Notes: generated from the sequence alone by a model not told the origin. DNA of 64,000 nt from Flavobacteriales bacterium (GCA_020635455.1 JACJZT010000003.1:266143-330142); one strand, 5' to 3'. Shown: positions 26,681-48,656, numbered from the stretch's first letter. Numbers and translations are program-made.

Positions 26681-29431
26681 ATGGTGTATTTTAACCTAGA
26701 ATGCACCGGCTTTTGGGAAGGCACTTTAGCAAAAGTGTATGGTACCTATGACCAGTTGAATCGATTGATCAGTGCAGATGTATATACTAATAGCACACTA
26801 TCTTCTAACTCGTGGAATTCATCCGGTTCGGCAGATAGCAGATGGGCGGAGCATTTTTCATACGATGCAAATGGAAACATTACAAGCCTCACCAGAAATG
26901 GAAATAAGGCCGATACATTAGCAATGGATGATCTGGACTACTACTACACGACTAATACAAACCGCCTGGCATATGTTGAAGATGCTGTAGCGGATATTAA
27001 TTACTCAAACGATATTGATAATCAGTCAAGTGGTAATTACGAGTATGATGCCATTGGAAATTTAATTAAAGATGTAAAGGAAGAAATCTATGATATCAAC
27101 TGGACCGTTTATGGAAAAATTAGCTCAATTATCAGAACCAGTGAAAGTGACAAATCAGACTTAAGTTTTTCTTATACGCCTGACGGACATAGATCCATAA
27201 AATCAGTCACACAGGATAGTTCCTTTGGTACATCACGCAGTGTATATATTCATGATGCTCAGGGAAATATTATGGCGGTCTATGCGCTTCCGATTGTAAA
27301 GGTACTGGATACCACGCAACTTGATTTTGAAATAATCAATAATGAATTGCTCAACCATATTACCCTGGAAGAGTTTGGGGATTTTATTATTGATGACATG
27401 GATATGGTTTCATTACTTTCTGCTCAGGGATATTATGATCCAACCGGAAATTATCGTACAGCCATTTATACAGCAAGTTCAGCATTAGAAGAAGCCCTTC
27501 TTTTGATTCTGGACCCGGCTCCTTATTTTAGTGCAAATTCAGGGTTAATCCAGACTGTATTTACAAATAACTATACCAATTTAGAAGTACTTCAAGTCCT
27601 ACTTGAAGGTAATTCCCTATCAAGTATATTATCGAGTGTAATAACAAATGAAATTTCAAACTCTGCATTTCATTCTCATTTAATGGCAACGCATGGGAAT
27701 ACATGGCTATCAGCACTATATACGCAGGATAATGGAGCATTTCAGACCTTTTATATAAACGCAATGGGAATGTACGGGCCTCCGGGTCTTTCTGGTCAAA
27801 CATATTCGTTTATGGAAAATGAACTTACCAATGTGCTTACCCCCGTTCAACTTCATGCAGCCATGGCAGCCTTATTATCAGACTCCTATGTCTATAATGC
27901 TTATGACAACAATTTTACCACTGTTGACAAAAATCAGTTGCTTTCCAACTATACAGGATTTAAATCGGCAGTGTATACAATTTACAGTGAAAGTGATCTG
28001 GTATCCTGGGCAGCTTCTTACGACTTAGAAGAGCTATGGACCGAAACGCTTAATGAAGAAACGTTAAGCGATATTCTTGACTGGTACGAAGCAAACCAAA
28101 GTGATGCCTTTTTAAAGAAATGCATTATTATTTACTCTGATTATGTTAATACTATGCTTACCAATGCAGCCGTTAATTTATATGATTACATGTCTGACAT
28201 TAAATCTTACTTAGGACAAACCGTGTTTGATAATTTATGTGGCGCATTAGAAGAAACCTATTTTATTCCTGCAACCGAATTAAGTATAAGTGAATGGCAT
28301 ATGTATGGCAGCAGTCGGCTTGGAATTTATCAAGCAGATAAAAAACTGGCCATTTATTATGAGAGCACCCTAACAACAATGGAATACCAGTCACGGGTGA
28401 ATTTCCGGGTTGTTGGTAAACGCAGATTTGAGCTTTCAAATCATTTAGGAAATGTGCTTGCAACTGTAAGTGATAAACGAATTGCCTATTGCTCTGAAGA
28501 GCAAACTACAATCACATATCACGCTGAGGTAATTACTGCAACTGATTACCATTCCTATGGAAGTATAATGGAAGGACGTCAATGGTCAAGTGGGACCTAT
28601 CGTTTTGGGTTCAATGGGAAGGAAAATGATGTGGAATCAGGAACTCAGGACTATGGGATGCGGATATACGATCCTAGGCTGTGCAGGTTTTTGAGTGTTG
28701 ATCCAATTAGTTTAGAGTATCCATGGAATAGTCCTTATCACTTTGCAGGGAACACACCAATTTGCGCTAGTGACTTAGATGGATTAGAACCTAATATTGA
28801 AACAATTGGGCTAGGTGCCTTGGCAGCAGGTTTTAAAGTTTATACACAGCGACAAGTATTACGCAGTAGCAAGAAATTTCAGAGTTTGTCTGATGAAGAG
28901 AAGGATAAGGTAATTAGTGTATTGAGAAACTCAGCTCAAGGTGTTTTGTTAAATCTATCGGATGAAGGTGTTTCAACGCTAGGATTTGGAATGATTAACT
29001 GGTCAAGTATTAAAAAAGGTCAAATAGCAATTTCAATCACTTTAGGAATTACTACAGGTCTTATACAAGGTCATTTTTCGGCTAAAGCCTTTTCACGGAA
29101 ATACGATGTTATAGTTAATGATAATAACTATAAAAAGAACGAAGCATTAATAAAAGAATATTATTCACTTTTAGATGAAAAAAGATTTGCAGAAAGTGCA
29201 TTAAAGGAGTCTGAAGAAAAGCAACAAAATTACTCAGCAGATAGTGAAGAAGGTAGAGAAGTTCAAAAACAAAAAGCAAAAGCTGAAACAGATTTAGCTA
29301 AAGTTGATTCTAATCTTAATGAAAAAAAGAGCGAATTTGAAAAAGCTAGTAAAGAAAATTCTAAAGCACTTTTAGGTACCGTAAAAATTTTTAAAAGTAT
29401 TAAATCCATTAAGAAAAAACTTGCTAAATGA
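26681..29431 (+). CDS. Rhs/YD-repeat polymorphic toxin protein with RHS repeat-associated core and a variable C-terminal toxin domain
   Basis: 916 aa. N-terminal YD repeats (FSYDANGNITSL, YEYDAIGNLIKD). The core reads RVVGKRRFELSNHLGNVLATVSDKR...DYHSYGSIMEGRQW...YRFGFNGKENDVESGTQDYGMRIYDPRLCRFLSVDP...DLDGLE. A unique C-terminal domain follows. The ORF begins 9 nt after the acyl-CoA dehydrogenase stop. Confidence 0.8.
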   Translation: MVYFNLECTGFWEGTLAKVYGTYDQLNRLISADVYTNSTLSSNSWNSSGSADSRWAEHFSYDANGNITSLTRNGNKADTLAMDDLDYYYTTNTNRLAYVEDAVADINYSNDIDNQSSGNYEYDAIGNLIKDVKEEIYDINWTVYGKISSIIRTSESDKSDLSFSYTPDGHRSIKSVTQDSSFGTSRSVYIHDAQGNIMAVYALPIVKVLDTTQLDFEIINNELLNHITLEEFGDFIIDDMDMVSLLSAQGYYDPTGNYRTAIYTASSALEEALLLILDPAPYFSANSGLIQTVFTNNYTNLEVLQVLLEGNSLSSILSSVITNEISNSAFHSHLMATHGNTWLSALYTQDNGAFQTFYINAMGMYGPPGLSGQTYSFMENELTNVLTPVQLHAAMAALLSDSYVYNAYDNNFTTVDKNQLLSNYTGFKSAVYTIYSESDLVSWAASYDLEELWTETLNEETLSDILDWYEANQSDAFLKKCIIIYSDYVNTMLTNAAVNLYDYMSDIKSYLGQTVFDNLCGALEETYFIPATELSISEWHMYGSSRLGIYQADKKLAIYYESTLTTMEYQSRVNFRVVGKRRFELSNHLGNVLATVSDKRIAYCSEEQTTITYHAEVITATDYHSYGSIMEGRQWSSGTYRFGFNGKENDVESGTQDYGMRIYDPRLCRFLSVDPISLEYPWNSPYHFAGNTPICASDLDGLEPNIETIGLGALAAGFKVYTQRQVLRSSKKFQSLSDEEKDKVISVLRNSAQGVLLNLSDEGVSTLGFGMINWSSIKKGQIAISITLGITTGLIQGHFSAKAFSRKYDVIVNDNNYKKNEALIKEYYSLLDEKRFAESALKESEEKQQNYSADSEEGREVQKQKAKAETDLAKVDSNLNEKKSEFEKASKENSKALLGTVKIFKSIKSIKKKLAK

Positions 29432-30039
29432 CAAAATTAATAATACTCATACCAACATTTATTTTATTTTCAAATTGGTCATTTTCACAACAAAATGTTA
29501 AATACAAACCTGATTTAATTTTAAATCTTTGTGGAGGTATTGAATTAAAGAATAATAACCAAAGGCAAATGAAAATAGATAATGCTGTTCCAGTTATTAA
29601 ATTTTCAATTGGCGACCATTTATTAAAAAAATATTATTACACAACTTCGATTTCATATTCTCACATTAAGGAAGATGGAATTGATAAGTTTGTCGAGTAT
29701 GATAAAACCGAGATTATGATTGGCTTCGGAATTGAAGCTGTTAAAAACAAAACCATTATTAGGCAGCAATTAAGTTTTGGTTCTAATAATTATACTGCTG
29801 TTACCATATTTAAAAATGAGCCTATAAATGGTTTCAATTATATGGGTAATAAGTTATCATCAAAGAATAATAGATCAATTAAGTATATTGTGGATTTTAT
29901 TAGTTTGAAAGCAAAAGAAATAAACTATTTAGGTGGATTAAGTATTTCCTATCTCTTAAAAAATGATTTTATGTTAACTAATGAAGTAAGTAATAGATTT
30001 TTTGTTCAGTTATATTGTGGATTAGATTTAAACTTTTGA
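29428..30039 (+). CDS. Candidate immunity protein for the Rhs C-terminal toxin (secreted)
   Basis: 203 aa with signal peptide MTKLIILIPTFILFSNWSFSQQ. Its start overlaps the Rhs stop (ATGA). Confidence 0.5.
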   Translation: MTKLIILIPTFILFSNWSFSQQNVKYKPDLILNLCGGIELKNNNQRQMKIDNAVPVIKFSIGDHLLKKYYYTTSISYSHIKEDGIDKFVEYDKTEIMIGFGIEAVKNKTIIRQQLSFGSNNYTAVTIFKNEPINGFNYMGNKLSSKNNRSIKYIVDFISLKAKEINYLGGLSISYLLKNDFMLTNEVSNRFFVQLYCGLDLNF

Positions 30040-30103
30040 AATTAAAACATACTTTTATTGAAATAGGCTCGACTTGTTCTTATACTTCAAACGAAAAGTT
30101 TCA

Positions 30104-30329
30104 ATTAATCAGACAACCCAACTTTTTGTGAAGGCAGAAAGACGAATATTCCGACTAAACTGAGCCACTAATTCCGGAACAAGGTGAGCCACCCATTTTG
30201 GAATAAATTAGCAGTCTTTTTCAATCCAATTTCCTAAATTTGAGTGTCACTTCTTAAATAGATCAAAGTGCACCTTTCGGTTAGAAATAATAATTCAACA
30301 TATTACCCTTCCTATGGAAGTGTAATGGA
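30104..30329 (+). repeat. Conserved orphan-cassette leader element, copy 1. An inverted copy lies at 39127-39344.
   Basis: About 225 bp from CAACCCAACTTTTTG to CCTATGGAAGTGTAATGG, roughly 85-90% identical to the reverse complement of 39127-39344. It contains tandem half-sites TGAGCCACTAATTCCGGAA (30161-30179) and TGAGCCACCCATTTTGGAA (30185-30203). A -7 box TAaaTTTG lies at 30235-30242. Confidence 0.7.
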
Positions 30330-31278
30330 AGGACGTTCATGGACAGGTGGGGCGTATAGATATGGGTTCAATGGAAAGGAAAATGATGATGAAATTAAGG
30401 GAAATGGAAACCAACAGGATTATGGAATGCGGATATACGATCCTAGGCTGTGCAGATTTTTAAGTGTTGACCCAGTTTCTAATTATTTTCCTTGGTACAC
30501 ACCTTACCTATTTGCAGGAAACAAACCAATTTGGGCTACAGACCTTGATGGGCTTGAGGAAGATTTTACAAATGCTCAACCCTTTGAATATTATAATGAT
30601 AAACTAGCTCTAGATATGAATGGTGCACCTTCTTATTCGCCCAAAAATGCAGCTGGTTTTGCTAGAAATGGCAATTGGTACTTTAAACAATTATTAGAGA
30701 AAATGCCATATTTATTTGACGAAGTGAATATAGATTTAATAAGAAATGGATTGGCTCCTGAAGTAAATGAAACTTGGATAAAATATGTTCCAGAGCACAC
30801 TGGGTTTGTAGGTGATAAATTAGTTCATCATCATATCGACCAACAGAATATGGCTACAGCGCTTCCTGAAAAAGTTCACAAAGAATATAGTAATGTGCTG
30901 CATACAAGGTATAAAGCTGGAAGATCAGCTGCAGGAAAATTAGGAAAACTTTATAATTTTTTAGGTGCTATTTTAATGTTTAGAGATCTTTTCAGTAAAG
31001 ATCCTCACTCTACTTTATCTCAATGGCAAGTGCAGTTAGGTTTTTGTAAAGAAGGTAAAATGTACTATTCTGAAAAGGATGATAGCTATTTTATTGCTGT
31101 GAGTATTGAAAAAACATATAATGCTGATGGGAACGAAGATGGTATGTTTATAACCTATGATAGATATGAGTCATATTATTATAATAAGGAAAGTAAGACC
31201 TACGAAGGATTTGATAAAATAGGAACATACACAGAATATTATTCCAATGAGACGGGTAAAAGTGAAGAAATAAAGTAG
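30268..31278 (+). CDS. Orphan Rhs C-terminal toxin cassette; putative HNH/EndoVII-fold nuclease toxin with HHH signature
   Basis: GTG start. (M)HLSVRNNNSTYYPSYGSVMEGRSW...YRYGFNGKENDDE...QDYGMRIYDPRLCRFLSVDP...DLDGLEE. The variable domain then contains KLVHHHIDQQNMATALPEKVHKEY, a His-His-His...N...H pattern. Confidence 0.7.
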   Translation: MHLSVRNNNSTYYPSYGSVMEGRSWTGGAYRYGFNGKENDDEIKGNGNQQDYGMRIYDPRLCRFLSVDPVSNYFPWYTPYLFAGNKPIWATDLDGLEEDFTNAQPFEYYNDKLALDMNGAPSYSPKNAAGFARNGNWYFKQLLEKMPYLFDEVNIDLIRNGLAPEVNETWIKYVPEHTGFVGDKLVHHHIDQQNMATALPEKVHKEYSNVLHTRYKAGRSAAGKLGKLYNFLGAILMFRDLFSKDPHSTLSQWQVQLGFCKEGKMYYSEKDDSYFIAVSIEKTYNADGNEDGMFITYDRYESYYYNKESKTYEGFDKIGTYTEYYSNETGKSEEIK

Positions 31279-31284
31279 TAAATC

Positions 31285-31815
31285 ATGACAGGATTAAATT
31301 TTATAACTGAGTATCTAAAACAAAAACCGGATTATCATCTAATGCAGTTATCAGGCATCCCAACAAAAAATATTCAAAGATACTTAAATGCTTTCAAAAT
31401 AGAGAGTAAAGACACCGTAGATATTTCCAATAATAATACACAGATAGAATTCCTTTATACAAGATATAATATGGCTAATATAGAAATTCGATCTTTTTGC
31501 TTTTTAGATAATTTAAAATATTCCGATAACTTTTGTATATTTGGTCGTTTTGATACAGAAAGGGTTGCTTGCAATTTAAATACAAACGAAATTGTCATGC
31601 TAGATGAGAATTCAAACTACATTATGTGTGGTTGTGCCCCTAATGAAAATCTTTTTTTTGATGCCTTAATTAGCTGTGCAGAGTATTCTAAGAAATTAAA
31701 AGAAAATAGTAACAATACAATAGAAGCGCCAAACGAAAGAGTGGACAAGATTGTTAAATTGGTTGGAGATAAATATAGAGATTTTTATTGTGTCCTACTC
31801 GGTTGTTATAGCTAA
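31285..31815 (+). CDS. Candidate cytoplasmic immunity protein for the preceding nuclease-type toxin
   Basis: 176 aa with no signal peptide. It starts 7 nt after the toxin stop. Confidence 0.5.
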   Translation: MTGLNFITEYLKQKPDYHLMQLSGIPTKNIQRYLNAFKIESKDTVDISNNNTQIEFLYTRYNMANIEIRSFCFLDNLKYSDNFCIFGRFDTERVACNLNTNEIVMLDENSNYIMCGCAPNENLFFDALISCAEYSKKLKENSNNTIEAPNERVDKIVKLVGDKYRDFYCVLLGCYS

Positions 31816-31849
31816 TTCAACTTTATTCTATTTCTAATATCATAATTAT

Positions 31850-32920
31850 GTGACCACTCCCGATAACTTAAGATTCTACTTTCCTATTAAATCCAAACCA
31901 ACGCCAATCCAATCTAGCAATGCTGTATACTGTACCCGCCATTACACTCCCTATGGAAGTGTAATGGAAGGAAGAAGTTGGAGTATTGAAAGTGCTGGTG
32001 GATATAGGTTTGGGTTTAACGGTAAAGAAGACGATGATGAAAAGCAAACACAGGATTATGGTTTTAGAACATACTATCCAAGATTAGGTCGTTTCTTATC
32101 TGTTGACCCACTTACAAAAGAATATCCATATTTAACACCTTATCAATTTGCGAGTAACTCTCCCATATCAGGAATTGATTTGGATGGTTTAGAATATTAT
32201 TATGCTGCTGATGGGAAATTTTTAGGACAGGGAGGTGACCCTGATAATAAAGAGGTTCGATTGGGTAAAATAACAGGTAAAACAAAATCGGGAAAAAATA
32301 TTATTACAGCAGTTGATTTGAAAGGTCAAGCACCAAGTAAGTGGACGGTAATACACAATAATCACGATGACTTTAAAGCAATGGCAGGTGTTTTATATGC
32401 AGAAGCAGACGGAACGACATCAGAGGCTGTGGATGAAGTTGCAGGTATTTATTCTGTACTTGAAAATCGAGCAAAATATGAGGGGACAACTGTTAAAGAG
32501 CAAATGACAACTGCGAAAGGAGTTTATGGTGCAAGCGAAGCTGACAAAATAAACCAAGCTGATAAAGCTGGAATGACTGCGAAGAAAGAAGCTGTATTCT
32601 CTGGGTTGATTAAAGGTATATTATCAGAAACAGACTTTTCAAATGGTGCATTCTATTGGGATGGTAAAGATTTTGAGAAAGGCGGGGGGCATAATGAACG
32701 TTATAAGCCAGGTTTCCAATTTACTGATAAGAGCCATGATTTATTTAATCAGGGAGATAATAAAAAATCTGGAACAGCCAACGGAGTAACATGGGATTAT
32801 AAGTATCAATCAACTGGCGCAAAAGGGAAAACAACTTTTTCCAAACTAACGGATAAGTGGAGAGATGCCCAATACCCTGGTGCAGGTAAAGGTAAACAAG
32901 TAGGTAAAGGGAAAGAGTAA
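31850..32920 (+). CDS. Orphan Rhs C-terminal toxin cassette with SleB/CwlJ-like cell-wall hydrolase (Hydrolase_2) toxin domain
   Basis: GTG start. ...HYTPYGSVMEGRSW...YRFGFNGKEDDDE...RLGRFLSVDP...DLDGLEYYY. The toxin region MAGVLYAEADGTTSEAVDEVAGIYSVLENRAKYEGTTVKEQ...NGAFYWDG matches the SleB-type pattern LYAEARGE...VA.VVLNR...NGALYF. Confidence 0.65.
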   Translation: MTTPDNLRFYFPIKSKPTPIQSSNAVYCTRHYTPYGSVMEGRSWSIESAGGYRFGFNGKEDDDEKQTQDYGFRTYYPRLGRFLSVDPLTKEYPYLTPYQFASNSPISGIDLDGLEYYYAADGKFLGQGGDPDNKEVRLGKITGKTKSGKNIITAVDLKGQAPSKWTVIHNNHDDFKAMAGVLYAEADGTTSEAVDEVAGIYSVLENRAKYEGTTVKEQMTTAKGVYGASEADKINQADKAGMTAKKEAVFSGLIKGILSETDFSNGAFYWDGKDFEKGGGHNERYKPGFQFTDKSHDLFNQGDNKKSGTANGVTWDYKYQSTGAKGKTTFSKLTDKWRDAQYPGAGKGKQVGKGKE

Positions 32921-32924
32921 TAAC

Positions 32925-33506
32925 ATGAAAAATTTATTTAGTTTAATTTTTGTTGGACTGTTTGCTTGTTGCACATCAAATGTGAATAAAGAGGTTGTCT
33001 CTACAATAAGCAATTTGACACCCGTTTCTCGAAACAACAAGGTAGCTGAAGTTCCTTGCAAAGAAGATTCATTAGTGAAAATACTTCTAAATAATGGGAT
33101 AAAAGCTGTTAAGGGCGGAGAGTTAATATCTGAACCCGATATTAAGTATACTTCGGGTTATTCTGATGATTTTTCATTTACTCATTATCAATTTTCTTAC
33201 AATGAAAACTCTATTGAGTTTGTTGACACGGTATATGAAAAAAGTAAAGTCGATAAACGAAACTTGTATTTAAACAACAAGCCTTTGAATGTTTGTTGTA
33301 TTAAGAATAACACATTTGATTTAGATTCAATGGAAGTGCATATTGATTATACAGAGTCTGAAATTTATACATTTAAAAATAATCCGTTCTATTTATTGGT
33401 TGTATCGCACCCTATGAATTGGGTGGGAACGATGACTAGATTTTCTTTTTTTCAATTGATTAACTCAAAAGAAAATACAGTAGTTGAATTTATTAGAGAT
33501 GCCTAG
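32925..33506 (+). CDS. Candidate periplasmic lipoprotein immunity protein for the cell-wall hydrolase toxin
   Basis: Signal and lipobox MKNLFSLIFVGLFACCTSN. It starts 5 nt after the toxin stop. Confidence 0.5.
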   Translation: MKNLFSLIFVGLFACCTSNVNKEVVSTISNLTPVSRNNKVAEVPCKEDSLVKILLNNGIKAVKGGELISEPDIKYTSGYSDDFSFTHYQFSYNENSIEFVDTVYEKSKVDKRNLYLNNKPLNVCCIKNNTFDLDSMEVHIDYTESEIYTFKNNPFYLLVVSHPMNWVGTMTRFSFFQLINSKENTVVEFIRDA

Positions 33507-33655
33507 AAAAACCTAAATATTTTTAGTCTTCTGTCAGATCAAGTCGCGACTATTACATTTTAAGTTATCTGTAATACTCCCTTAGGATAACTTTGCTAAT
33601 ACTGCTCACAAAGCATGAACTTGGTAACTCCAACCAGGTTGAGGGATTGTTCTAT

Positions 33656-33882
33656 TTAGGGGAACATGCCGTACAGCTCCTTATGCGAGGGTTTTTCTGA
33701 GGCCGGTGGTAAAACAATGGAATAGAGTTCTTTATCGGTTAATTGAAGCAGTTCCTTGTAGGACAAAGGGTGTACGTCAAAAATGGACTTGTACTTGTCG
33801 ATGGAGTTTCTTGATATGGAAGTGAGACGACTGATCTGACGACCCGACTTTGTAATTTGTACCGATATTTATATTGGCTATC
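33656..33882 (-). pseudogene. IS21-family (IstA-like) transposase N-terminal fragment with no start codon
   Basis: Minus-strand frame reads ITKSGRQISRLTSISRNSIDKYKSIFDVHPLSYKELLQLTDKELYSIVLPPASEKPSHKELYGMFP*. This is an IstA-type HTH N-terminus, with no ATG upstream and a stop after about 75 aa. Confidence 0.35.
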
Positions 33883-33923
33883 TTTGTCTTTTATAATAAA
33901 AATAAACCTATTTAAAGCCATAT

Positions 33924-34247
33924 ATGATTTTCAGACAGCACAAAGCAGCCTTTCGTAAACTCAAAGGGATTTCCCAGGGCAATCTATGTAAATCGGTTAG
34001 AACTTTAGGAGATATTATCGGCAAGTATGAACGTAATGAGGTAAAACCCCCCATAGTGGTTGCTTCTAAAATTGCCTATATACTTGAAGTAAGTCTTGAT
34101 TATCTGCTCGGTATGATTTCCCTTGAACTGGATAAAAAAACTCTCAAACTCTTACATGACATAAAAAAACTCCTTGAAACCGATAAATATAATATTTCCT
34201 ATACCATTGACGGGCTGATTAAGGCGGCGAAGATTAATGCACTCTAA
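33924..34247 (+). CDS. XRE-family (Cro/C1-type HTH) transcriptional regulator
   Basis: LKGISQGNLCKSVRTLGDIIGKYERNEVKPPIVVASKIAYILEVSLDYLLG is a typical HTH_XRE helix-turn-helix. Confidence 0.55.
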   Translation: MIFRQHKAAFRKLKGISQGNLCKSVRTLGDIIGKYERNEVKPPIVVASKIAYILEVSLDYLLGMISLELDKKTLKLLHDIKKLLETDKYNISYTIDGLIKAAKINAL

Positions 34248-34289
34248 AACACAAGTGCCTAGCGGCAATATCCCCCAATATATAATCAG

Positions 34290-34673
34290 ATGGAATCCAT
34301 TATTAAAATTTGGCCTTATATTAAAATTGTTCTCGAAGCCATATTCTTAATTTGTTGTTTAATCCTTCCATTCTTGCTTATTTCACTAGCATTGAAAAAA
34401 AAGAAATTAGTTATATGTATAGATCAAATTGAAAAAAAAGAAACAATTGAATATACCAAAGATATTAATTTAGCGTTTGATCCACTTTTTGTATTTAATC
34501 TTTTTGCTGAACTACCAGAAATTAAAAAAGACCCGTCGCTTAATAAAAATAAGTTAGCCTTAGAGTTAGAAGAAAAAATAACTATTCTTACAAAAATTGT
34601 AAAACGTATTTCTGTAATACTCGGAACCACTTTATTACTTCTGCTTGTGTTAATTAATTGGCTTGAGAGTTGA
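34290..34673 (+). CDS. Small membrane protein of unknown function
   Basis: 127 aa with hydrophobic N- and C-terminal helices. Co-oriented with the XRE gene. Confidence 0.35.
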   Translation: MESIIKIWPYIKIVLEAIFLICCLILPFLLISLALKKKKLVICIDQIEKKETIEYTKDINLAFDPLFVFNLFAELPEIKKDPSLNKNKLALELEEKITILTKIVKRISVILGTTLLLLLVLINWLES

Positions 34674-35397
34674 TAAACCTTGTACTATTTGTAATTTCTT
34701 TAAATAGATCGTTGTACTTTACAAACTCTTCTCCTTTACCTCCTGCTATGCACGTAATTATGTAACAATTATGTCCGTTAAGTATGTAAGTAGTAATAAC
34801 GCCTAATTTTTTACCATCAGTTTTTACGTGATAAAATATCTCGTAAGCTTTATTTCCTGCGATTTTATATTCTCTTTCTCTTCTAAATTTTATTTCCTCA
34901 TAAGCACTTGCTAAATCCTCTTTATTAGCCATAATAAATCGGGGAAAATCAATACCCGAAGGCATTTCCTCTCGCAAAATATTAATAGTCGGAGCGAAAA
35001 TAGTATCACTTGACATAGGTTTAACGGCTAAGATAAGAGCTTGTTTATACTTTTTTTTAACTATCCATTTTGAAGGCAAATTAATGCTTACCTCATCGGA
35101 TAAAACTTCTAAAAAAATAAAATCTTCTTTATCAATATCGGTAATTTTTTCATTTCTATAAAAATAGACGACTGATACAAGATCTCCATTTTCGTGATAT
35201 TTTTTCCATATTCCATTTTTTCTTCCCCCAATAAGCATTCCCGTTTCTTTTATCTCACCTGAAGGGTACTTAGCACTATATAACCCACTTAATGTGTCTT
35301 TCATTGTTTCAACCTGTTGTGACTGATTGGTTTTATCTTTTTTATTATTACATGCTAAAAGAAAAGTGCAAGAAATTATAAAAATTGTCCTTCTCAT
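34654..35397 (-). CDS. Candidate lipoprotein immunity protein with MORN-like repeats (YwqK-type)
   Basis: Signal and lipobox MRRTIFIISCTFLLACN. Repeat YPSGEIKETGMLIGGRKNGIWKKYHENGDL. Its start overlaps the stop of the upstream toxin cassette (ATGA). Confidence 0.5.
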   Translation of the reverse strand: MRRTIFIISCTFLLACNNKKDKTNQSQQVETMKDTLSGLYSAKYPSGEIKETGMLIGGRKNGIWKKYHENGDLVSVVYFYRNEKITDIDKEDFIFLEVLSDEVSINLPSKWIVKKKYKQALILAVKPMSSDTIFAPTINILREEMPSGIDFPRFIMANKEDLASAYEEIKFRREREYKIAGNKAYEIFYHVKTDGKKLGVITTYILNGHNCYIITCIAGGKGEEFVKYNDLFKEITNSTRFINSQAN

Positions 35398-36320
35398 TTT
35401 TTACGTTTCTTAGGTTTATCGCGAACACCAAATGAAATTTCTCCTTCTATTCCGAGAATGAGGGCTAAACGTCCTTTAATTGAAAATCCTAAATCATGCT
35501 TCATTGCAACTAATTGCTGTTTTTTGACTTGGTATTTGACAATAACAGCATTAACAGTTAAAGAATGATTTTCATTTTTGTATCCCCCTCCCGTAACCGA
35601 ACCATCAAAACTATGTTCATACTCAGCACCACCATAATAACTTGCACCAGCATATTGGCTTATATGTGCATAACCATCTTCCCCAACATAATCAAAATCA
35701 AATGTTTTTGGTCCATAATCACTTTCTATTTGTTCATAATTCGCACTAGCTAAATCAATTGTCATCAAGCTACCTTCTAACCTTACCGCTAACCCTCCCG
35801 CTTCGAAATCAAAGCCAGCTTGAGCCCCAACATCCACTTTTCCATTGAAATTTGCATAGAGTTCTGTTTTGTCCCACCAATTGCGAAAAGAAGTTATGCC
35901 TTTAGAAAGACCATTTCCAATGTCTTCAAAAAAACCAGCAATCCTATTCCCTATATTATTTTTAAAAACCTTGGAACCGACTTCTAAATCTGCAATTGAG
36001 CCATCAGTATTTTTTCTTAAAGTATTTTTATCAACTGAATAATGTTTTCTCCCATTTTTATTTATCCATTCTTTAAGAATTCCGCCATTTGCTTTCTGGT
36101 ATGCTTCCGCTTTTCTTTTACTCCTTTCTTCCCCATTTAAACCCGAAGGATCTGCGAAAAAAATCGGATTCCCATGAAAGGTTGTATAGGGGCTTTCACA
36201 AGATTTAATTATCGGGTCAACATTCCATCTCCTTCCTAGCCTAGAATCATACTCCCAGAATTGAGCGGTTGTCGTATTTCCTTCACCATAAATTTCATCA
36301 TCCTTCTCCTGAGTGTTGAA

Positions 36321-37579
36321 CCATAAGTGTTCGAAACCTTGAACAACGGGTTGTTAATAGTTAGTAATATTGGTTTTCAGAAGTTTAAGGTTGGTTATTA
36401 GTTTGATATGTGAATGCGGACCAATTGCTAAAATTAATTCCTGAGGATGAATTAGAGTTCTTGAGTGTAACTACCGATGTAAATTATCAAACCAAAAAGC
36501 TCTATGGTTCTGTAATTTTCAAGTTGCTTTTATTTTCTATGCTCAACAGTTCCAAGGTTAGCTATCGTGTAATGGAAAAGATAGTGTTATCCTCCAGTTT
36601 TATAGCTTTTCTTGGGTTCAAAATCGAAACAAAATTTAATTCTATACGGGATAGAATATGCTGTATAAATGCTTCTTATTTTGAACAACTTTTCAATAAA
36701 ATATTTACCATTTATAATCAACAGCTCAAGGAAGAAAAAGCCTTGATAAAGGTTGACAGCACATATGTAGGAATTGCCTCCAAACTGGTAAAATGGGATA
36801 TGCATAATGGCAGGAAGAATACATCTAAAAAGCAAATTAAATATTCGGTAAGTGTTAAAGGCAGCCTTCCATGTGGCTTCAAAATTTTCACTGATAAAAA
36901 ATATATCAGCGAAGATTTGGCATTATCGGAAACCATTACTGAAAATATCCATATAGATGAATCTCTTGTCGTATTTGACCGTGGACTTAAATCCAGAAAA
37001 AAATTCGATGAATTAACCAATCAAAGCATACATTTTATAACAAGAATTGCGCCTAACACCTTTTTAAAAATAATTGAAAACAATAGACTATACCGGCCAA
37101 TTGAAACTCAAACATTAATTATAAATGAAGATTTAAAAGTAAAATTAAGAAATAGGAGTTCGAAAATTTCAGATAACAACTATAGGGTAATTAAGGCTAA
37201 AATGAAATCTTCTAATGAACCACTTATCTTTTTGACCAATGACTTTGATCTAAGTGCCGATGAAGTTACTACCTTATATAAACAAAGATGGGAAATAGAA
37301 TTATTTTTTAAATTTTTAAAGCAACACCTAAATCTCTCACATCTTGTATCTCGGAATGAAAATGCAATTAAAGTAATTCTTTATATGACCATGATATTGG
37401 CAATTTTAATTCTATCTTATAGAAAAATAAACAATATCAAAGGGTATAAAATGGCAAAACTGCAATTTGAAATTGAGTTGGACAATTCAATGATTAAAGA
37501 AATTGTGATCCTCTCTGGCGGAAACCCTGATAAAGTCTCATATCTTTGGAACACCTCCTAAGGTTTCGAACACTTATGG
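36321..37579 (+). mobile_element. IS4-family insertion sequence (1259 bp) with 19-bp terminal inverted repeats and a 7-bp target-site duplication
   Basis: Left inverted repeat CCATAAGTGTTCGAAACCT (36321-36339), right inverted repeat AGGTTTCGAACACTTATGG (37561-37579). Direct repeat TGTTGAA at 36314-36320 and 37580-37586. Confidence 0.8.
36410..37561 (+). CDS. DDE transposase, IS4 family
   Basis: 383 aa. The YREK signature YKQRWEIELFFKFLK matches the Y-(2)-R-(3)-E-(6)-K spacing. Confidence 0.8.
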   Translation: MNADQLLKLIPEDELEFLSVTTDVNYQTKKLYGSVIFKLLLFSMLNSSKVSYRVMEKIVLSSSFIAFLGFKIETKFNSIRDRICCINASYFEQLFNKIFTIYNQQLKEEKALIKVDSTYVGIASKLVKWDMHNGRKNTSKKQIKYSVSVKGSLPCGFKIFTDKKYISEDLALSETITENIHIDESLVVFDRGLKSRKKFDELTNQSIHFITRIAPNTFLKIIENNRLYRPIETQTLIINEDLKVKLRNRSSKISDNNYRVIKAKMKSSNEPLIFLTNDFDLSADEVTTLYKQRWEIELFFKFLKQHLNLSHLVSRNENAIKVILYMTMILAILILSYRKINNIKGYKMAKLQFEIELDNSMIKEIVILSGGNPDKVSYLWNTS

Positions 37580-37778
37580 TGTTGAACCCAAACCTATATC
37601 CACCAGCTCCTTCAGCTTTCCAACTTCTTCCTTCCATTACACTTCCATAGGAAGAGTAATGGAACAGAAGATATTTATATTTATTTTGAGTCAATATTTT
37701 GTTTTTGAACCTTTCTAAAAAGTAAGAAAATTAGAGCATAAAAATTTTGAGACTTTTATTAAAATAATACTTTGGTTA

Positions 37779-38156
37779 TTAATCTAAAATACGTCTCAAT
37801 CCTTTATAGAAATATCCTTGCTCAACAATTTCTTTGCCATTATAGCGGACATAGTAACCTGTCAGTCTCCCTTTATATACAAAGGATTTTCTTATTACTT
37901 TTTTTTTATTAATTTCAATATAAAACCCGAATACCTTTTTATTGAATTTCGGAATTTCATGACCCTCTACTAGACGAGCACTAAAAAGAGTATCTCCATT
38001 GGAAATAATCATAGAATATGGACGATTAAAAAAAGATGAATCTAATTCAGAAGACTTATAGACCTTTGCTGTTTGGGAATAAACCTTACCGTGATAAACT
38101 ATTAAAACTACCAGGAAGCAGAATTTACTTATTAGTTTTTTCAGATTTGTATACAT
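37779..38156 (-). CDS. Candidate secreted immunity protein for the upstream toxin cassette
   Basis: Internal start MYTNLKKLISKFCFLVVLIVYHGKVYSQ gives a signal peptide. The ORF-track start at 38222 would overlap the toxin gene more extensively. Confidence 0.4.
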   Translation of the reverse strand: MYTNLKKLISKFCFLVVLIVYHGKVYSQTAKVYKSSELDSSFFNRPYSMIISNGDTLFSARLVEGHEIPKFNKKVFGFYIEINKKKVIRKSFVYKGRLTGYYVRYNGKEIVEQGYFYKGLRRILD

Positions 38157-39189
38157 CTTTACTTGATTTGTCTTTTTGAAGGTCTTGTTCACTTCCTGTA
38201 TTATACTGTTTCTCATAGTCAAGCATTAACTTAATTTTTTCATTCGTTGCACCATGCCCTTTCGCATAGTCAATAAAATAATCCACAAAATCATTATAAC
38301 TCTCATTCAAACCAAGGTTGGCAGCCGCATGTTGATTATCGTTCACAGTTGGTTTTTGAATTTCTTGATGTTGTTTTATTAGTTCATCACCTTTTATACC
38401 TTTATTGATAGCTTTGAAAAATTGTAAATGCATCTTTACGTGCAATGTTGCTTCATGCCCAGCCGTAAATAAAATATTCAAATGATCTCCCTCAACAGTA
38501 CTTTCGGCTGTTGGATCTGTTGATGATTCATTTGTATTGACTGGTTGAACAGAACTAACCTTAACAACAACCTTTCCTTTAGTATTTCCGTGAATTCTTT
38601 TAATGAATTTACCATCGCCTATTAAATAATCTTCCGAAAGTCCCCAATCAGCGTTAACCCACTTAAGACCAATACGTACATAACCATTAGTTTCTCCACC
38701 TGCCTTTTTTTGGTATTTGAATAAAATATCATTGTTACCTGAAAGTGATCCAGCATTGTGCTCTCCCCAGAATTTTTTTGCTTGACGCTTGGTTGCAAAA
38801 TCTCCATAGATTTCCTTACCCGATTCCGATTTTAAGTATGTCAATTGAGCCTTATAAACATCTCTGTGGAATATTCTTAAAGCTAGCGAAAATTTAATTT
38901 TACTACCTTCATAATCTTCAAACATTATAGGATTATCAAGAGCAAAAGTATAAGGGCTGTTGGAAGGATATGACCTAAATTCCGGATCTACAGCTAACCA
39001 TTTTCCTAATCTCGAATCATAAATCCTAACCCCGAAATCATAACTACCTCCATCTACATTAATTTCATCATCCTTTTCCTTCCCATTAAATCCGTATCGA
39101 TAGGTCCCACCTGACCACGAGCGACCAACCATTACACTTCCATAGGGAGGGTAATAATATGAGATATATTGACTAAACCGAAGATGCAT
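38125..39189 (-). CDS. Orphan Rhs C-terminal toxin cassette with an unassigned toxin domain
   Basis: MHLRFSQYISYYYPPYGSVMVGRSWSGGTYRYGFNGKEKDDE...YDFGVRIYDSRLGKWLAVDP, followed by a roughly 250-aa unique region. It is preceded by copy 2 of the leader element. Confidence 0.7.
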   Translation of the reverse strand: MHLRFSQYISYYYPPYGSVMVGRSWSGGTYRYGFNGKEKDDEINVDGGSYDFGVRIYDSRLGKWLAVDPEFRSYPSNSPYTFALDNPIMFEDYEGSKIKFSLALRIFHRDVYKAQLTYLKSESGKEIYGDFATKRQAKKFWGEHNAGSLSGNNDILFKYQKKAGGETNGYVRIGLKWVNADWGLSEDYLIGDGKFIKRIHGNTKGKVVVKVSSVQPVNTNESSTDPTAESTVEGDHLNILFTAGHEATLHVKMHLQFFKAINKGIKGDELIKQHQEIQKPTVNDNQHAAANLGLNESYNDFVDYFIDYAKGHGATNEKIKLMLDYEKQYNTGSEQDLQKDKSSKDVYKSEKTNK

Positions 39190-39344
39190 TTTGGGCTATT
39201 TAAGAAGCAATACTCAAATTTAGTAAATTGGATTGAAAAAGACTGCTAATATATTCCAAAATGAGTGGCTAGCCTTATTTCGGAATGAGTGGCTCAGTAT
39301 GGCCGGAATATTCGTCTTTCTGCCATCGCAAAAAGTTGGGTTGA
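39127..39344 (-). repeat. Conserved orphan-cassette leader element, copy 2 (inverted relative to 30104-30329)
   Basis: The reverse complement aligns to copy 1 along its whole length. It includes both half-sites, the -7 box (plus-strand CAAATTTA at 39215-39222) and the first codons of the cassette. Confidence 0.7.
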
Positions 39345-39392
39345 CATTTGGGCTGAATTCTCACTTCCTTCGTCAAAAAAGAGGTCTATGGT

Positions 39393-39887
39393 TCAATAAG
39401 AACTCAAAGTATCAATTTCAATTTCTTCATTAAAATTTACACCGAAATAAACTATGTCTTTTGAATAAATTTTCAAGAATTTGCTTGATAAAATCCGGTA
39501 GTATAAGCAGAATTTTTCATGCTTTTTTAGATACTCTAACCCAAATACATTGATCAAATCATCAATTGATAAGTTAATTTTTTGTGTTTCATTCCTTTTA
39601 AGTGCAATAGAATCATATAACAATTGATAATTCATCTTATAAGACTCTAAATTTCTTATATCATATAAAATTCTATGGTCGGCACTATCATTCTTGCCAT
39701 CCAAAAGTATGATGTAATGAAGGATACTATCCGAGACGTTAGTAATTTTTAGTTTTATGGTATCTTTCTTTAATTCATATGAAATATCTAAATATTTTTT
39801 TTCAATAGTTTTGGCAGAATTCAAGTTTTTACTAGAGTAATTACAACAAAGTAAAAGAAGACCGAAAACACAGATATTCACTTTCAT
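39393..39887 (-). CDS. Candidate periplasmic lipoprotein immunity protein for the Tlde1-like toxin
   Basis: Signal and lipobox MKVNICVFGLLLLCCNYSS. It starts 3 nt downstream of the toxin stop. Confidence 0.5.
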   Translation of the reverse strand: MKVNICVFGLLLLCCNYSSKNLNSAKTIEKKYLDISYELKKDTIKLKITNVSDSILHYIILLDGKNDSADHRILYDIRNLESYKMNYQLLYDSIALKRNETQKINLSIDDLINVFGLEYLKKHEKFCLYYRILSSKFLKIYSKDIVYFGVNFNEEIEIDTLSSY

Positions 39888-39889
39888 TG

Positions 39890-40960
39890 TTACCGTTGTT
39901 TTGTAAGATGATTGAATGTCGATGCATTTGGATTTGAGTATTTTACGATTACAAATATTCTTCCTTCATATGTGCTATTACGATATCTCCATAAATAGTA
40001 ATAAATGTCGTTAGAATTTGTTGTTTCAACGCAGCCATGTGTTTCTCCTTTACCAGAGTCATGGATGTAATGATTGTCTCTATTATATGAATTACCTGAA
40101 ATCCTATCTAATCTTGCTCTCCATACGCCCCATCCTGCATAATAATTTCCATGATCTGTATATTCAAGTCCACCTCCGGTACTAGGTACCAGATTGCCAG
40201 CTAGATCTTTTCCTGCAGACCTGCCATTCGGATCAGGTTTTAGGTTTATTGTATAGGTTCCTTCGGGTACTGGACCTCCGGGGTCATCATACCCATAACT
40301 TTTTTTACTTTGATCAGAAGCTTTTTGGTAATCAAATGAACCAGAGGTTGCAGGCCATGATTCAAGTATCAGATTATCCAAATTCAATCTATTTATATTT
40401 TGGCCATCATACATAAGATATTCTGGACTTTGATAATCTTTACCAGTTTTTGAATTCTTATATGCATTAAATGTACCATCTCCATTATAAAATGCCACAA
40501 ATCGATCTTGTCCTATATTAAACGAGCGCACAGATCCTTCAATTGTAGAAATTTTAACATTTGTGTTTAACGTGCTATTGGGTCCTCCAGTATTGTAATC
40601 GTTTATAATAGCATTTTTTGGAAGATATAAATTACCTCCCTCTCCTTTATGTTTGTTATAATTTTCTTCAGGCCCCCCTCCACCCAAATAATCAACTATG
40701 GCAATAGGAGAATTATTAAAATATGAGTAAGTGCTTTGCCAGGCATATTCACGTTCTCTAGGGTCTGTACTGAACCATCTACCTAACCTACTATCATAAA
40801 TTCTTAACTCATAGGCTACAAAATTACCTTCACCCTTAATTTCATCATCATTTTCCTTCCCATTAAATCCGAAACGGTATGCACCATCTGACCAACAACG
40901 TCCTTCCATTACACTTCCATAGGAATGGTAATCAAAATGAGTTCTATCTACGACGGTCAT
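39890..40960 (-). CDS. Orphan Rhs C-terminal toxin cassette with Tlde1/DUF2778-like (L,D-transpeptidase fold) toxin domain
   Basis: MTVVDRTHFDYHSYGSVMEGRCW...YRFGFNGKENDDE...RIYDSRLGRWFSTDP. The toxin region has WPATSG...GGPVPEGTYTI and HYIHDSGKGETHGCVE, which resemble the GPIPxGxY and H...HGC motifs of YkuD/Tlde1 domains. Confidence 0.6.
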   Translation of the reverse strand: MTVVDRTHFDYHSYGSVMEGRCWSDGAYRFGFNGKENDDEIKGEGNFVAYELRIYDSRLGRWFSTDPREREYAWQSTYSYFNNSPIAIVDYLGGGGPEENYNKHKGEGGNLYLPKNAIINDYNTGGPNSTLNTNVKISTIEGSVRSFNIGQDRFVAFYNGDGTFNAYKNSKTGKDYQSPEYLMYDGQNINRLNLDNLILESWPATSGSFDYQKASDQSKKSYGYDDPGGPVPEGTYTINLKPDPNGRSAGKDLAGNLVPSTGGGLEYTDHGNYYAGWGVWRARLDRISGNSYNRDNHYIHDSGKGETHGCVETTNSNDIYYYLWRYRNSTYEGRIFVIVKYSNPNASTFNHLTKQR

Positions 40961-41035: not shown

Positions 41036-41710
41036 ATGCAAAGAACAAACGACAAAATCCCAATCCTTATTTTGCTCGAAAAGTTTATTTACGATTCGGA
41101 GAAAGGAAAGAGGCTTCAAAAGAATGGAGCACTAATTTCAAGCTCAACCATTGATAATTACCATGCTTTGTTTTCAAATTTAAAAGGATTTTGCTCCAAG
41201 TCTCAAAATGAATGGTCCTTTAATGTAAAATACAGAGCTTCAAAAACCGGATTTAGTAAGGAAAAGAAGTATTACAAACGGTTCTATACACATTTCACCA
41301 ATTATTTGTACAGCAAAGGATGTACTGATAATTATGTTGGCATGCAAATAAAAATCCTACGTACTTTTTTTATTTACCAGATAACTACCCTAGGCTATGA
41401 AATGGGATTGTTTTACAGGGATTTTTACGTTAGAAGGGAAGAAATACCCATTATCGTACTTTCACAGGAGCAATTAAGGTTTCTGATAAGTAATGAAGAG
41501 TTCGAGAATTCTCTTTTAGCAAAAATGAAGATAATAAAGGACATCCTTGTGTTTGGATGTACCATCGGTTTAAGATTCTCAGATTTAATGTCATTAAAAG
41601 GTTCAAATCTCGTAGAACAAGATGGAGCAACTTATATTGTTAAAGTATCAAAAAAAACAAACAACGCTGTACTTAGTTTATCAATTAATTTATGTTTATT
41701 TTTTAAATAG
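41036..41710 (+). pseudogene. Truncated tyrosine recombinase/integrase: core-binding domain and first half of catalytic domain only
   Basis: 224 aa ending shortly after the catalytic-Arg region VFGCTIGLRFSDLMSLKGSNL. The HxxR and Tyr nucleophile regions are missing and the gene is followed by 378 bp of non-coding DNA. Confidence 0.55.
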
Positions 41711-47558: not shown

Positions 47559-48656
47559 TTAATCTGTATTTTCCAGTATTTCTATTAGTTTTTGGTTCAA
47601 GTATAGTTTCTCCTTTCCGACCTTTTCCGATTTCAAAAAGCCGTTTTCTTCCAATGCCATCAAATAATTTCCGACTGTTTTTAAGTTTCCTATATTTTCG
47701 TCAACCATGTATTGGCGTTTAGTATATGGTAAACGAAATAGAATCTCAATCAAGTCTTTGGAATAAACTCTTGGCAACTTCTTTTTGATTTCGTTTGCAG
47801 TTTCTTCCATGGCTAATGTGATTTTTCTTAGTCTTTTCAAACCTTTATTGGATGTTTCTTCTATCATATCCATCATATAAATAATGTAATCTTCCCATTC
47901 GTTTTTTTCTGTAACATCTCGTAAACACTTGTAATATTTATTTTTATTCTTAAAAATGTATTCACTCAGGTAAATTGCCGGTGTATTTAATAATCCGGAA
48001 ATTTTTAGATACAATATCAATAAGATTCTTCCTGTTCTTCCATTACCGTCGGAGAATGGGTGAATGGCTTCAAATTGATAATGCAATATTGCCATTTTTA
48101 TTAATGGGTCTATTGTTGTGTTTTCGTTTATGAACTTTTCCAGGTTTGCCAGTTTTTCACGGATAATCGATTCGCCACTTGGCGGAGTGTAAATGATTTC
48201 GCCTTGCGGGTTGCTCAATGTAGTTCCCGGTGTATTCCTTATCGAAGCACTATTTTGTTTAATGCACTGAACAATTTTGATACAAAGATTGGTTGTTATA
48301 AATGGTTTTGTTTTCAACTCTTCTAAGCCTAACCAAAGTGCTTCCTTGTAACTTAAAACTTCTTTTGTCGCTGTGTTTTCTATCTTTCTGTCGGCAACTA
48401 AAGATTTGTATAGTTCATCGTTTGTCGTAATAATGTTTTCTACTTCAGAGCTTGCCTTCGCTTCTTGTAAATAAATCGTGTCTAGAAATAAAGTAGGGTT
48501 TGGTAAATTGAGTAAAGTTCCGTTTAGTTGAGCCAAGGATCGTCCGGCGGAAATTGCCTTTCGAAGAATTTGTTTAGTTTCTATGTCTGCCTTTGGTGGT
48601 AGTAACGGCAGTTCATTATATGGAATTTTTTTGTCGAATCGGGTCATTAGATTCAA
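47559..48656 (-). CDS. Fic/DOC family protein (class II, in-cis inhibitory motif)
   Basis: Fic motif HPFSDGNGRTGRIL. An N-terminal SxxxEN inhibitory motif lies within SSEVEN. C-terminal winged-helix region. Confidence 0.85.
   Translation of the reverse strand: MNLMTRFDKKIPYNELPLLPPKADIETKQILRKAISAGRSLAQLNGTLLNLPNPTLFLDTIYLQEAKASSEVENIITTNDELYKSLVADRKIENTATKEVLSYKEALWLGLEELKTKPFITTNLCIKIVQCIKQNSASIRNTPGTTLSNPQGEIIYTPPSGESIIREKLANLEKFINENTTIDPLIKMAILHYQFEAIHPFSDGNGRTGRILLILYLKISGLLNTPAIYLSEYIFKNKNKYYKCLRDVTEKNEWEDYIIYMMDMIEETSNKGLKRLRKITLAMEETANEIKKKLPRVYSKDLIEILFRLPYTKRQYMVDENIGNLKTVGNYLMALEENGFLKSEKVGKEKLYLNQKLIEILENTD

Follow-up and report, generated by a model that had tools for sequence, protein, structure and literature searches.

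The stretch of DNA analysed here (the window) comprises 64 kb of chromosomal DNA on contig JACJZT010000003.1, part of a metagenome-assembled genome of a Flavobacteriales bacterium, and carries an AT-rich island of ~15 kb, at 26.7-41.7 kb, in which six Rhs toxin tips are found together with six partner genes. The guanine-plus-cytosine (GC) content is 26-38% over 26.7-41.9 kb, compared to about 41-46% in the flanks. Such an AT-rich island had been reported in an initial annotation made from the sequence alone, and all twelve open reading frames (ORFs) that it listed are present. The flanks are of housekeeping character: the genes for LeuRS and ArgRS are found there, as are those for LigA and a DEAD-box helicase (from 42089) and the fadB-fadA-fadE operon, which ends at 26671. 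The island ORFs correspond to locus tags H6605_03690 to 03755, every one of which is annotated as hypothetical. The Rhs cassettes are designated T1-T6 and the respective downstream genes I1-I6; P-numbers refer to relative proteins and L-numbers to related loci or contigs, metagenomic ones included.

The cassettes are organised in two arrays. On the plus strand, T1 (26681-29431, 916 aa) is followed by I1 (29428-30039, 203 aa), T2 (30268-31278, 336 aa) by I2 (31285-31815, 176 aa) and T3 (31850-32920, 356 aa) by I3 (32925-33506, 193 aa). On the minus strand, T4 (39890-40960, 356 aa) precedes I4 (39393-39887, 164 aa), T5 (38125-39189, 354 aa) precedes I5 (37779-38156, 125 aa from the ATG at 38156), and T6, present in two parts (37580-37694 and 35394-36313), precedes I6 (34654-35397, 247 aa). 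Toxin and partner genes are joined by an ATGA overlap at T1 and T6 and are 2-6 nt apart at T2, T3 and T4, close to the earlier description of a 3-7 nt spacing or ATGA overlap; the description fails at T5, where the two genes overlap by 32 nt. The core motif TAYGGAAGTRTAATGGWAGGA occurs at six sites in the 64 kb, at 28556, 30313 and 31952 on the plus strand and at 37649, 39144 and 40921 on the minus strand. A search for the 21-nt core motif TATGGAAGTGTAATGGAAGGA, degenerate at four positions and with up to three mismatches allowed, returned six sites corresponding to the six cassettes (0.02 expected from shuffled sequences) and no further copies.

Homology to the Rhs core, for which a profile search had been named as a possible refutation, was confirmed with TIGR03696 (Rhs_assc_core, NCBIfam; curated cut-off 32.5 bits). 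T1 (58.8 bits), T2 (42.1), T3 (59.4), T4 (45.5) and T5 (43.9) all score above the cut-off. T6, once freed of an inserted element, spans the entire model at 26.9 bits, under the cut-off, which indicates that its tip is more diverged. Pairwise alignment, proposed along with the profile search, showed the tips to be 37-62% identical at the protein level. The motif P-x4-D-x2-G is present in all six tips, and the closing L in T1, T2, T3 and T6. The DLDGL end ascribed to every tip holds as a loose motif, since T4 has DYLGG and T5 DYEGS in its place. The six C-terminal domains that follow are mutually unrelated. T2-T6 contain no YD repeats; they start 10-33 codons ahead of YGS, and an in-frame stop codon lies 3-33 codons upstream of each start. 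A restart at ATG or GTG a few codons before the core, predicted for all six, was seen in T2-T5 but not in T6, which starts at TTG, nor in T1, where the core lies ~620 codons into the ORF.

T1 had been taken as a full Rhs gene, and alignment to longer relatives does not support this. The longest relatives carry 650-835 extra residues upstream, and in alignments the initial Met of T1 falls on the Met of a motif, NGNIxxMV, that is internal to longer proteins. The ORF begins 9 nt past the fadE stop codon. It is composed of YD-repeat parts at aa 23-201 and 534-622, separated by a ~330-aa insert (aa 205-535), then the Rhs core at aa 623-702 and a C-terminal domain of 214 aa (28787-29428). About 370 repeat residues, roughly half a shell, are retained, with a weak match to the RHS_repeat profile, and an N-terminal delivery domain is absent. 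The same truncation is seen in P0001, the closest relative (58% identity). T1 is thus 5'-truncated, and all six cassettes are orphans. The absence of a full-length Rhs gene noted for the minus-strand array holds, and the plus strand likewise has none. The insert of T1 (27290-28285, residues ~205-535) has no YD repeats and is shared by only a few relatives (P0001, P0003, P0004, P0018 and P0029); in most T1 homologues residue ~201 is fused straight to ~534.

T6 had been described as split by an insertion sequence (IS), and this is borne out. An IS4-family element of 1259 bp (36321-37579, plus strand; transposase at 36410-37561, NF033592, E = 1e-46) with perfect 20-bp inverted repeats separates the 5' part of T6 (37580-37694, minus strand), consisting of the TTG start and the first 38 tip codons, from the 3' part (35394-36313), which contains the remaining tip and a 247-aa glycine-rich domain. 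The element is flanked by a 7-bp target duplication, TGTTGAA, at 36314-36320 and 37580-37586. Removal of the element and one copy of the repeat restores an intact ORF of 344 aa. The perfect ends and the target duplication point to a recent insertion; no second copy of the element was found in the window. The eleven ORFs other than T6 are all intact.

Among the toxin domains, two could be placed in known families. The C-terminal domain of T2 matches PF15637 (Tox-HNH-HHH) at 92.7 bits (E = 2e-26; gathering cut-off 26.1 bits) over profile positions 3-102 of 103 and, as judged from sequence, is a Tox-HNH-HHH nuclease and a clear member of this family. The domain of T4 scores 27.6 bits with YkuD (cut-off 23.4) and 24.2 bits with Tlde1_dom, under the Pfam cut-off of 30.1, yet it shares the catalytic motif IHDSxKGxxHGC with Tlde1a (PDB 7UMA). 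In the comparison with Tlde1a (E = 1e-4), YIHDSGKGETHGCVE of T4 is aligned to YIHDSTKGYSHGCIE. T4 is accordingly described here as carrying a Tlde1-like, L,D-transpeptidase-like domain. Unlike the Tlde1 effectors of type VI secretion systems and the PF15637 proteins, the domains of T4 and T2 are fused to an Rhs tip.

The domains of T3, T5 and T6 have no family in Pfam. The 242-aa domain of T3 gave no Pfam or PDB match. A word-indexed search of 5.8 billion proteins yielded three relatives, all at the C-termini of Bacteroidota Rhs proteins (P0121-P0123; 65, 55 and 39% identity). The lipoprotein-like I3, whose signal-like N-terminus ends in GLFAC, matches the genes directly 3' of the two closest (E = 1e-12 and 3e-6). 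Assignment of T3 to the SleB/CwlJ-like cell-wall hydrolases, considered on account of a VLYAE…VLENRA motif, received no support from Pfam at E up to 10 or from a PDB profile search. Upstream of the T3 relative P0123, an orphan array is present in L082 (1-1869), with an Rhs tip joined to a Gly/Ala/Ser/Val-rich toxin domain, followed by a membrane protein of 95 aa and a secreted protein of 165 aa.

The 258-aa domain of T5 has eight relatives besides itself among 1.84 billion representative proteins. H149, E150, H154 and H191 are invariant in the family and form an H-E-x-x-x-H…H pattern, so that the motif reads HExxxH and is without the zincin HExxH signature; no Pfam peptidase match was obtained in the eight family members. 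T5 is regarded as a rare family whose predicted fold may be zincin-like. The secreted I5 matches the genes after the T5 relatives P0130 and P0131 (E = 1e-12 and 1e-4), and the 32-nt overlap of T5 and I5 is identical in L088.

Four relatives of the glycine-rich T6 domain, which is probably rich in beta-strand, were found among the 5.8 billion proteins (P0125-P0128; 52-59% identity), all of orphan size (289-331 aa). An AlphaFold2 model of T6 was unusable (pLDDT 36). I6, a lipoprotein with a MORN_2 repeat and a PsbP_2 domain (PF18933, E = 9e-7), is 42% identical (E = 3e-74) to the gene after P0127, and in the contig of P0126 a 246-aa MORN_2 gene occupies the position of I6. T6 and I6 appear with two further genes. 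An RstR/XRE-type helix-turn-helix (HTH) regulator of 107 aa (33924-34247, plus strand; NF041951, E = 1e-16) is followed by a small protein of 127 aa with two transmembrane segments (34290-34673, plus strand; hydrophobic at aa 7-37 and 103-127), which is convergent with I6 and overlaps its 3' end. The four-gene block is kept in L086 (143-2608), with the toxin at 45%, the MORN/PsbP-like lipoprotein at 42%, the two-transmembrane ORF at 41% and the HTH gene at 41% identity; the two-transmembrane ORF is again convergent with the same 3'-end overlap. The HTH protein is also 28% identical to one beside a toxin/immunity pair in L091, and PADLOC returned generic HTH matches for the HTH/membrane pair but no defence-system match. 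The two arrays do converge on 33.5-34.7 kb, as had been described, but the interval is occupied by these two genes of the T6/I6 block.

Conservation of the downstream ORFs as partners, the second point on which the earlier interpretation could have failed, was found for T3/I3, T5/I5 and T6/I6, the three pairs open to this comparison. By their sequences and neighbourhoods these are rare toxin/immunity families with conserved partners, and the proposal of candidate new families is fair in their case. At least three toxin domains had been placed outside known families, and those of T1, T5 and T6 stay unassigned here; the T3 domain belongs in the list too. The C-terminal domain of T1, which has a K/E-rich tail and a single weakly hydrophobic stretch (aa 79-94), gave no relative in a weak search, in which four C-terminal domains were concatenated and the K/E-rich tail may have crowded the candidates. 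No family match was obtained for the putative immunity proteins I1, a singleton at 90% clustering, I2 and I4.

A signal peptide or lipobox had been assigned to four partners and denied to two. In fact hydrophobic signal-like N-termini are present in five of the six (I1, I3, I4, I5 and I6; I4 is signal- or lipoprotein-like), and I2 alone has none. The prevalence of such N-termini points to targets in the envelope, and most of the island toxins appear to act there. The five exported partners would fit envelope-acting toxins, namely the Tlde1-like T4, the possibly zincin-like T5 and the domains of T1, T3 and T6, and the putatively cytoplasmic I2 would fit the T2 nuclease.

To locate the boundary of the cassettes, their DNA was compared directly. 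Homology starts within about 6 nt of one point, 13-17 nt before TATGG, with the exception of T2 and T5, where it also covers a shared non-coding leader. From the upstream Tyr through the Glu of Y..YGSVME, the same codon is used for the same amino acid in 100% of pairs; over YGSVMEGR the same-codon use is 83%, compared to 50% in the rest of the tip (Fisher p about 1e-9, the pairs not being independent). The ~30-nt joint is an imperfect palindrome centred on TAT, matching at 14/15 positions in T6, 12/15 in T3 and 8/15 in T1, the worst. The tips are mosaic: in one 30-nt block T2 is like T5 and T4, and in the following block it is like T1. We take the joint to be a recombination site at the DNA level, which either the integrase described below or RecA may use.

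The leader of T2 and T5 is 154 nt long, has stops in all frames and is found upstream of these two cassettes only (copy A, 30114-30267, plus strand; copy B, 39190-39343, minus strand; 88% identity). It contains two direct repeats of ~25 nt (GAGCCACnnATTnnGGAAnAA), followed by TAAATTTG 25 nt ahead of the start codon, and may be a promoter or operator. Presence of the conserved TAAATTTG box upstream of T4 as well as T2 and T5, the in-frame starts 10-33 codons before the core and the tight coupling of toxin and immunity genes could be attributed to a toxin-antitoxin or addiction role, in which each orphan is translated from its own ATG, GTG or TTG, acts inside the producer and stabilises the island. 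Action of an orphan Rhs inside the producing cell has been reported in Salmonella (PMC7043789). However, five of the six partners would be exported and the orphan toxins have no signal peptide, which places toxin and antidote in different compartments; T2/I2, a predicted nuclease with a cytoplasmic partner, is the only pair that fits. In addition, the TAnnTTTG boxes near the start codons (four seen, about two expected) are not above chance. An addiction role for these cassettes is thus very improbable.

At the outer end of the minus-strand array, 75 nt from T4 and divergent from it, an ORF of 224 aa (41036-41710, plus strand) represents the first ~215 of ~365 residues of a tyrosine integrase. 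It gives a weak match to Phage_int_SAM_5 and is 41-45% identical to the intact integrases of L088, L091, L092, L094 and L095. The catalytic C-terminal half is gone, and no continuation was found downstream of 41710. On its reading frame, therefore, the ORF is a dead tyrosine integrase. The remnant was first matched to the integrase of L088 (42% identity), a locus chosen solely for its T5 relative; that integrase has a weak Xer-like score. In L088, a run of three co-directional cassette/immunity pairs begins 46 nt past the integrase, and a further toxin gene (Peptidase_M91) with small ORFs lies convergent on the opposite strand.

Seven loci were obtained when metagenomes were scanned with the integrase alone as the query, and L092, L094 and L095 among them include DNA downstream of it. 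In L088, L092, L094 and L095 a co-directional Rhs-tip cassette begins 30-95 nt after the integrase stop codon, and L094 has one convergent cassette besides. The intact relative in L091 (44.5% identity) is divergent from its cassette, as in the window. Counting the window, six loci have sufficient flanking DNA, and at each of them an Rhs orphan cassette lies no more than about 110 nt from the integrase. P0009 (L091, 33-2756), in which an integrase and Rhs are fused, was rejected as evidence for the link; its integrase half belongs to an unrelated family, 28% identical to the L091 integrase. In P0009 the N-terminal ~296 residues of an IntDOT-like integrase are joined to a truncated Rhs, whose Rhs part begins with LYNYSYDQLNR at the same start point as T1, P0010 and P0012.

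Signs of site-specific recombination come from a comparison of L094 with L095. The two loci lie at the same chromosomal site, with a common left flank (a GspF-like gene) and integrases that are 88% identical, and their homology breaks exactly at the tip start. The integrase-adjacent cassette of L095 matches the minus-strand cassette of L094. In L094, an inverted repeat of 110 nt with 100% identity (9261-9370 and 12883-12992), made up of the 3' end of the integrase gene, the spacer and the opening codons of the tip, links the integrase flank to both outermost cassettes. Identity of the repeat ends after TATCCATTTGGTAGTCCAATGCC, exactly at the cassette core, beyond which the tips are ~50-60% alike. 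The sequence TATCC(G/A)TTTGGTAG is found in every cassette of this integrase clade, and the contigs L093 and L096 end 35-45 nt past the same core.

The inversion-like repeat of L094, the convergence of the arrays and the 80-85% identity of the T1 tip, over ~88 nt, to the inverted T4 and T5 are what a working shufflon in the window would show, with inversion between the T1 tip and the opposite T4, T5 or T6 tips swapping the C-terminus of an expressed T1. Such a device is scarcely credible at this locus. T1 is without most of the shell and the delivery domain, so that an exchange of its end would arm nothing, and it has the poorest core palindrome of the set. The integrase is dead, and the fixed flank in the relatives is the integrase and not an Rhs body.

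The marks of decay (truncated T1, the IS in T6 and the dead integrase) could also belong to a passive graveyard, where successive toxin/immunity arrivals at the 3' end of an rhs gene displaced older tips and the main gene was later truncated; the modules would then be functionless now, and the integrase and IS unrelated debris. The plus-strand order T1, T2, T3 is as displacement would produce it, and L099 carries a degenerate, frameshifted tip after P0001, the closest T1 relative. Against this, the other eleven ORFs are intact, as is T6 minus the IS, the five short orphans are cut at one point and not at random lengths, and there is a second array that runs the opposite way. The occurrence of one integrase clade beside Rhs tips at each of the six loci is not explained by chance debris. 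A graveyard origin is thus considered unlikely.

The site of the island was examined in related genomes. An exact-protein look-up of fadE gave no match, the best fadE match across 185,579 species genomes has only 66% identity, and at 80 related fadE loci no Rhs tip was seen nearby. From its low GC content and the lack of Rhs tips at the related loci, the island is foreign to the site, and the region at 26.7-41.7 kb is likely an island that was acquired horizontally and serves to store Rhs C-terminal modules. Direct repeats of att type bounding it were at most 9-mers, which is the chance level, and an Rfam scan of the window gave no match at the gathering threshold.

The following organisation is proposed for these loci. 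A module would comprise ~90 residues from the end of the Rhs core, the variable toxin domain and the matching immunity gene, the core end being a plug with the PxxxxDxxG self-cleavage motif. As no module has a YD-repeat shell or an N-terminal delivery domain, the toxins would not be deliverable from the island itself; the immunity genes would guard the cell when relatives fire the same toxins. A module could move onto a full-length rhs elsewhere in the genome through recombination in the conserved tip and change the toxin that is fired. The recombination joint would be the ~30 nt at the 5' edge of every module, with the codons for xY..YGSVME. In Bacteroidota the architecture would include a dedicated tyrosine integrase directly beside the module arrays, often in two convergent blocks, and, to judge from the related loci, the integrase probably captures or inverts modules at the joint. 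In the window the system would be decaying, with the integrase minus its catalytic half and T6 split by the IS.

Orphan Rhs arrays are textbook knowledge in Enterobacteria, where exchange is attributed to homologous recombination. The window agrees with the orphan rhs-CT/rhsI modules described there (Poole et al. 2011, PMC3150448; Koskiniemi et al. 2014, PMC3967940) in having 3' rhs fragments with a partial core, a variable toxin and an adjacent immunity gene, a silent store able to recombine with a full gene. It differs in that no full-length rhs adjoins, three of the orphans are on the opposite strand with the arrays convergent, the short orphans are all cut at one fixed point some 10 codons ahead of YGS, the neighbouring integrase is of a dedicated clade and the host belongs to Bacteroidota. 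The core domain, the P-x4-D-x2-G motif and a variable C-terminus followed by an immunity gene (the partner being conserved elsewhere for T3, T5 and T6) are features of Rhs/YD-repeat toxins in general; unlike the complete ones, the window cassettes have neither a full shell nor an N-terminal delivery domain.

Multiple cassettes with a short conserved boundary site beside a tyrosine recombinase are characteristic of shufflons (R64 Rci) and integrons, the cassettes lying in opposite orientations in shufflons and divergent from the recombinase gene in integrons. The window resembles both in layout, with recombinase, multiple cassettes, boundary site and orientation, but is assigned to neither. There is no fixed 5' gene segment that receives the cassettes, and recombination is putative. 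An IntI-type integrase, attI or attC was not recognised, the layout alone having been compared and no search aimed at them.

A second comparison is with the recombinase-linked loci of acquired interbacterial defence (rAID-1) in Bacteroidales, defined by a XerD-like recombinase at least 44% identical to BF9343_RS08045 and at least two co-directional downstream genes of GC ≤41% (Ross et al. 2019, 10.1101/471110; PMC12247911). Both have a tyrosine recombinase next to an array of short genes, low in GC and connected with interbacterial toxins, and both show some repeated intergenic sequence, although the comparison is by layout and not by recombinase sequence. The GC content of 26-38% is within the rAID-1 limit. 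The recombinase is upstream and co-directional in L088, L092, L094 and L095, whereas in the window it is truncated and divergent and the arrays run in both directions. Every unit of the window holds a complete toxin with an Rhs tip, unlike rAID-1, which has immunity genes only. Polyimmunity loci, with which recombinases of XerC/D type are linked, are likewise 'never interrupted by toxin cassettes', and no such link was described for toxin-cassette arrays (Zhang et al. 2012, PMC3482391). The standalone cassettes of the same study are closer to the window: they too form arrays in which every toxin cassette has an immunity gene, and it was proposed that they diversify the main toxin through recombination.

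These shared traits allow the island to be viewed as a defence island of rAID type, with the immunity genes as the selected cargo and the toxin cassettes carried along because modules were acquired whole. Five of the six immunity proteins would be exported, all six are intact and there is no delivery apparatus nearby, as this would predict. The retention of a complete toxin domain by each immunity gene and the lack of co-directionality with the recombinase in the window do not agree with it. We regard a defence island of this type as possible but doubtful.

The window island probably belongs, in a decayed state, to a recombinase-linked variant of the known orphan-Rhs kind that is as yet undescribed. 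A wider proposal is offered tentatively, at less than even confidence: a class of Bacteroidota elements in which a dedicated recombinase captures, reorders or inverts complete Rhs cassettes in an integron- or shufflon-like manner, by site-specific recombination at a core of ~25-30 nt within the first tip codons (YYPFGS or Y..YGSVME), a relative of rAID-1 that keeps the toxins, with the window as a decayed example. The link between integrase and cassettes looks new, in that no description of recombinase-linked arrays of complete Rhs cassettes was found in the papers searched, which is not proof of absence.

Several observations weigh against the proposed store of modules and its integrase link. 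Neither a secretion-system gene nor a full-length rhs was found on either strand of the 64-kb window, which makes the acceptor for the modules hypothetical. The sample of integrase loci is small (seven confirmed, four with downstream DNA), and the L094 repeat lies at a contig end, where it may reflect the assembly or another copy of the integrase. There is no sign of recent activity in the window, since the integrase is dead and divergent rather than co-directional and no perfect repeat is present. The longest exact tip-to-tip matches, 22-33 nt, are marginal for RecA-driven exchange. The pairs in the codon-identity test are not independent, and its pattern could also arise from frequent gene conversion. 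In view of the in-frame start in each and the TAAATTTG box before T2, T4 and T5, the orphans may also be expressed alone.

If true, a version of such arrays that is linked to a recombinase and has a defined DNA joint would offer a testable mechanism for the assembly and shuffling of toxin/immunity repertoires in Bacteroidota and might show the origin of the immunity-only rAID arrays in gut Bacteroidales. The interpretation given in the initial annotation is supported in substance, and the island yields three rare toxin/immunity families and one toxin domain without a detectable relative.

The window has another patch of low GC content (30-36%), with genes at 47559-48656 on the minus strand and 49164-50771 on the plus strand. 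It includes a 535-aa ORF without a Pfam or PADLOC match, whose neighbour is a SoFic-type Fic/DOC defence gene (PADLOC SoFic, E = 2e-108).

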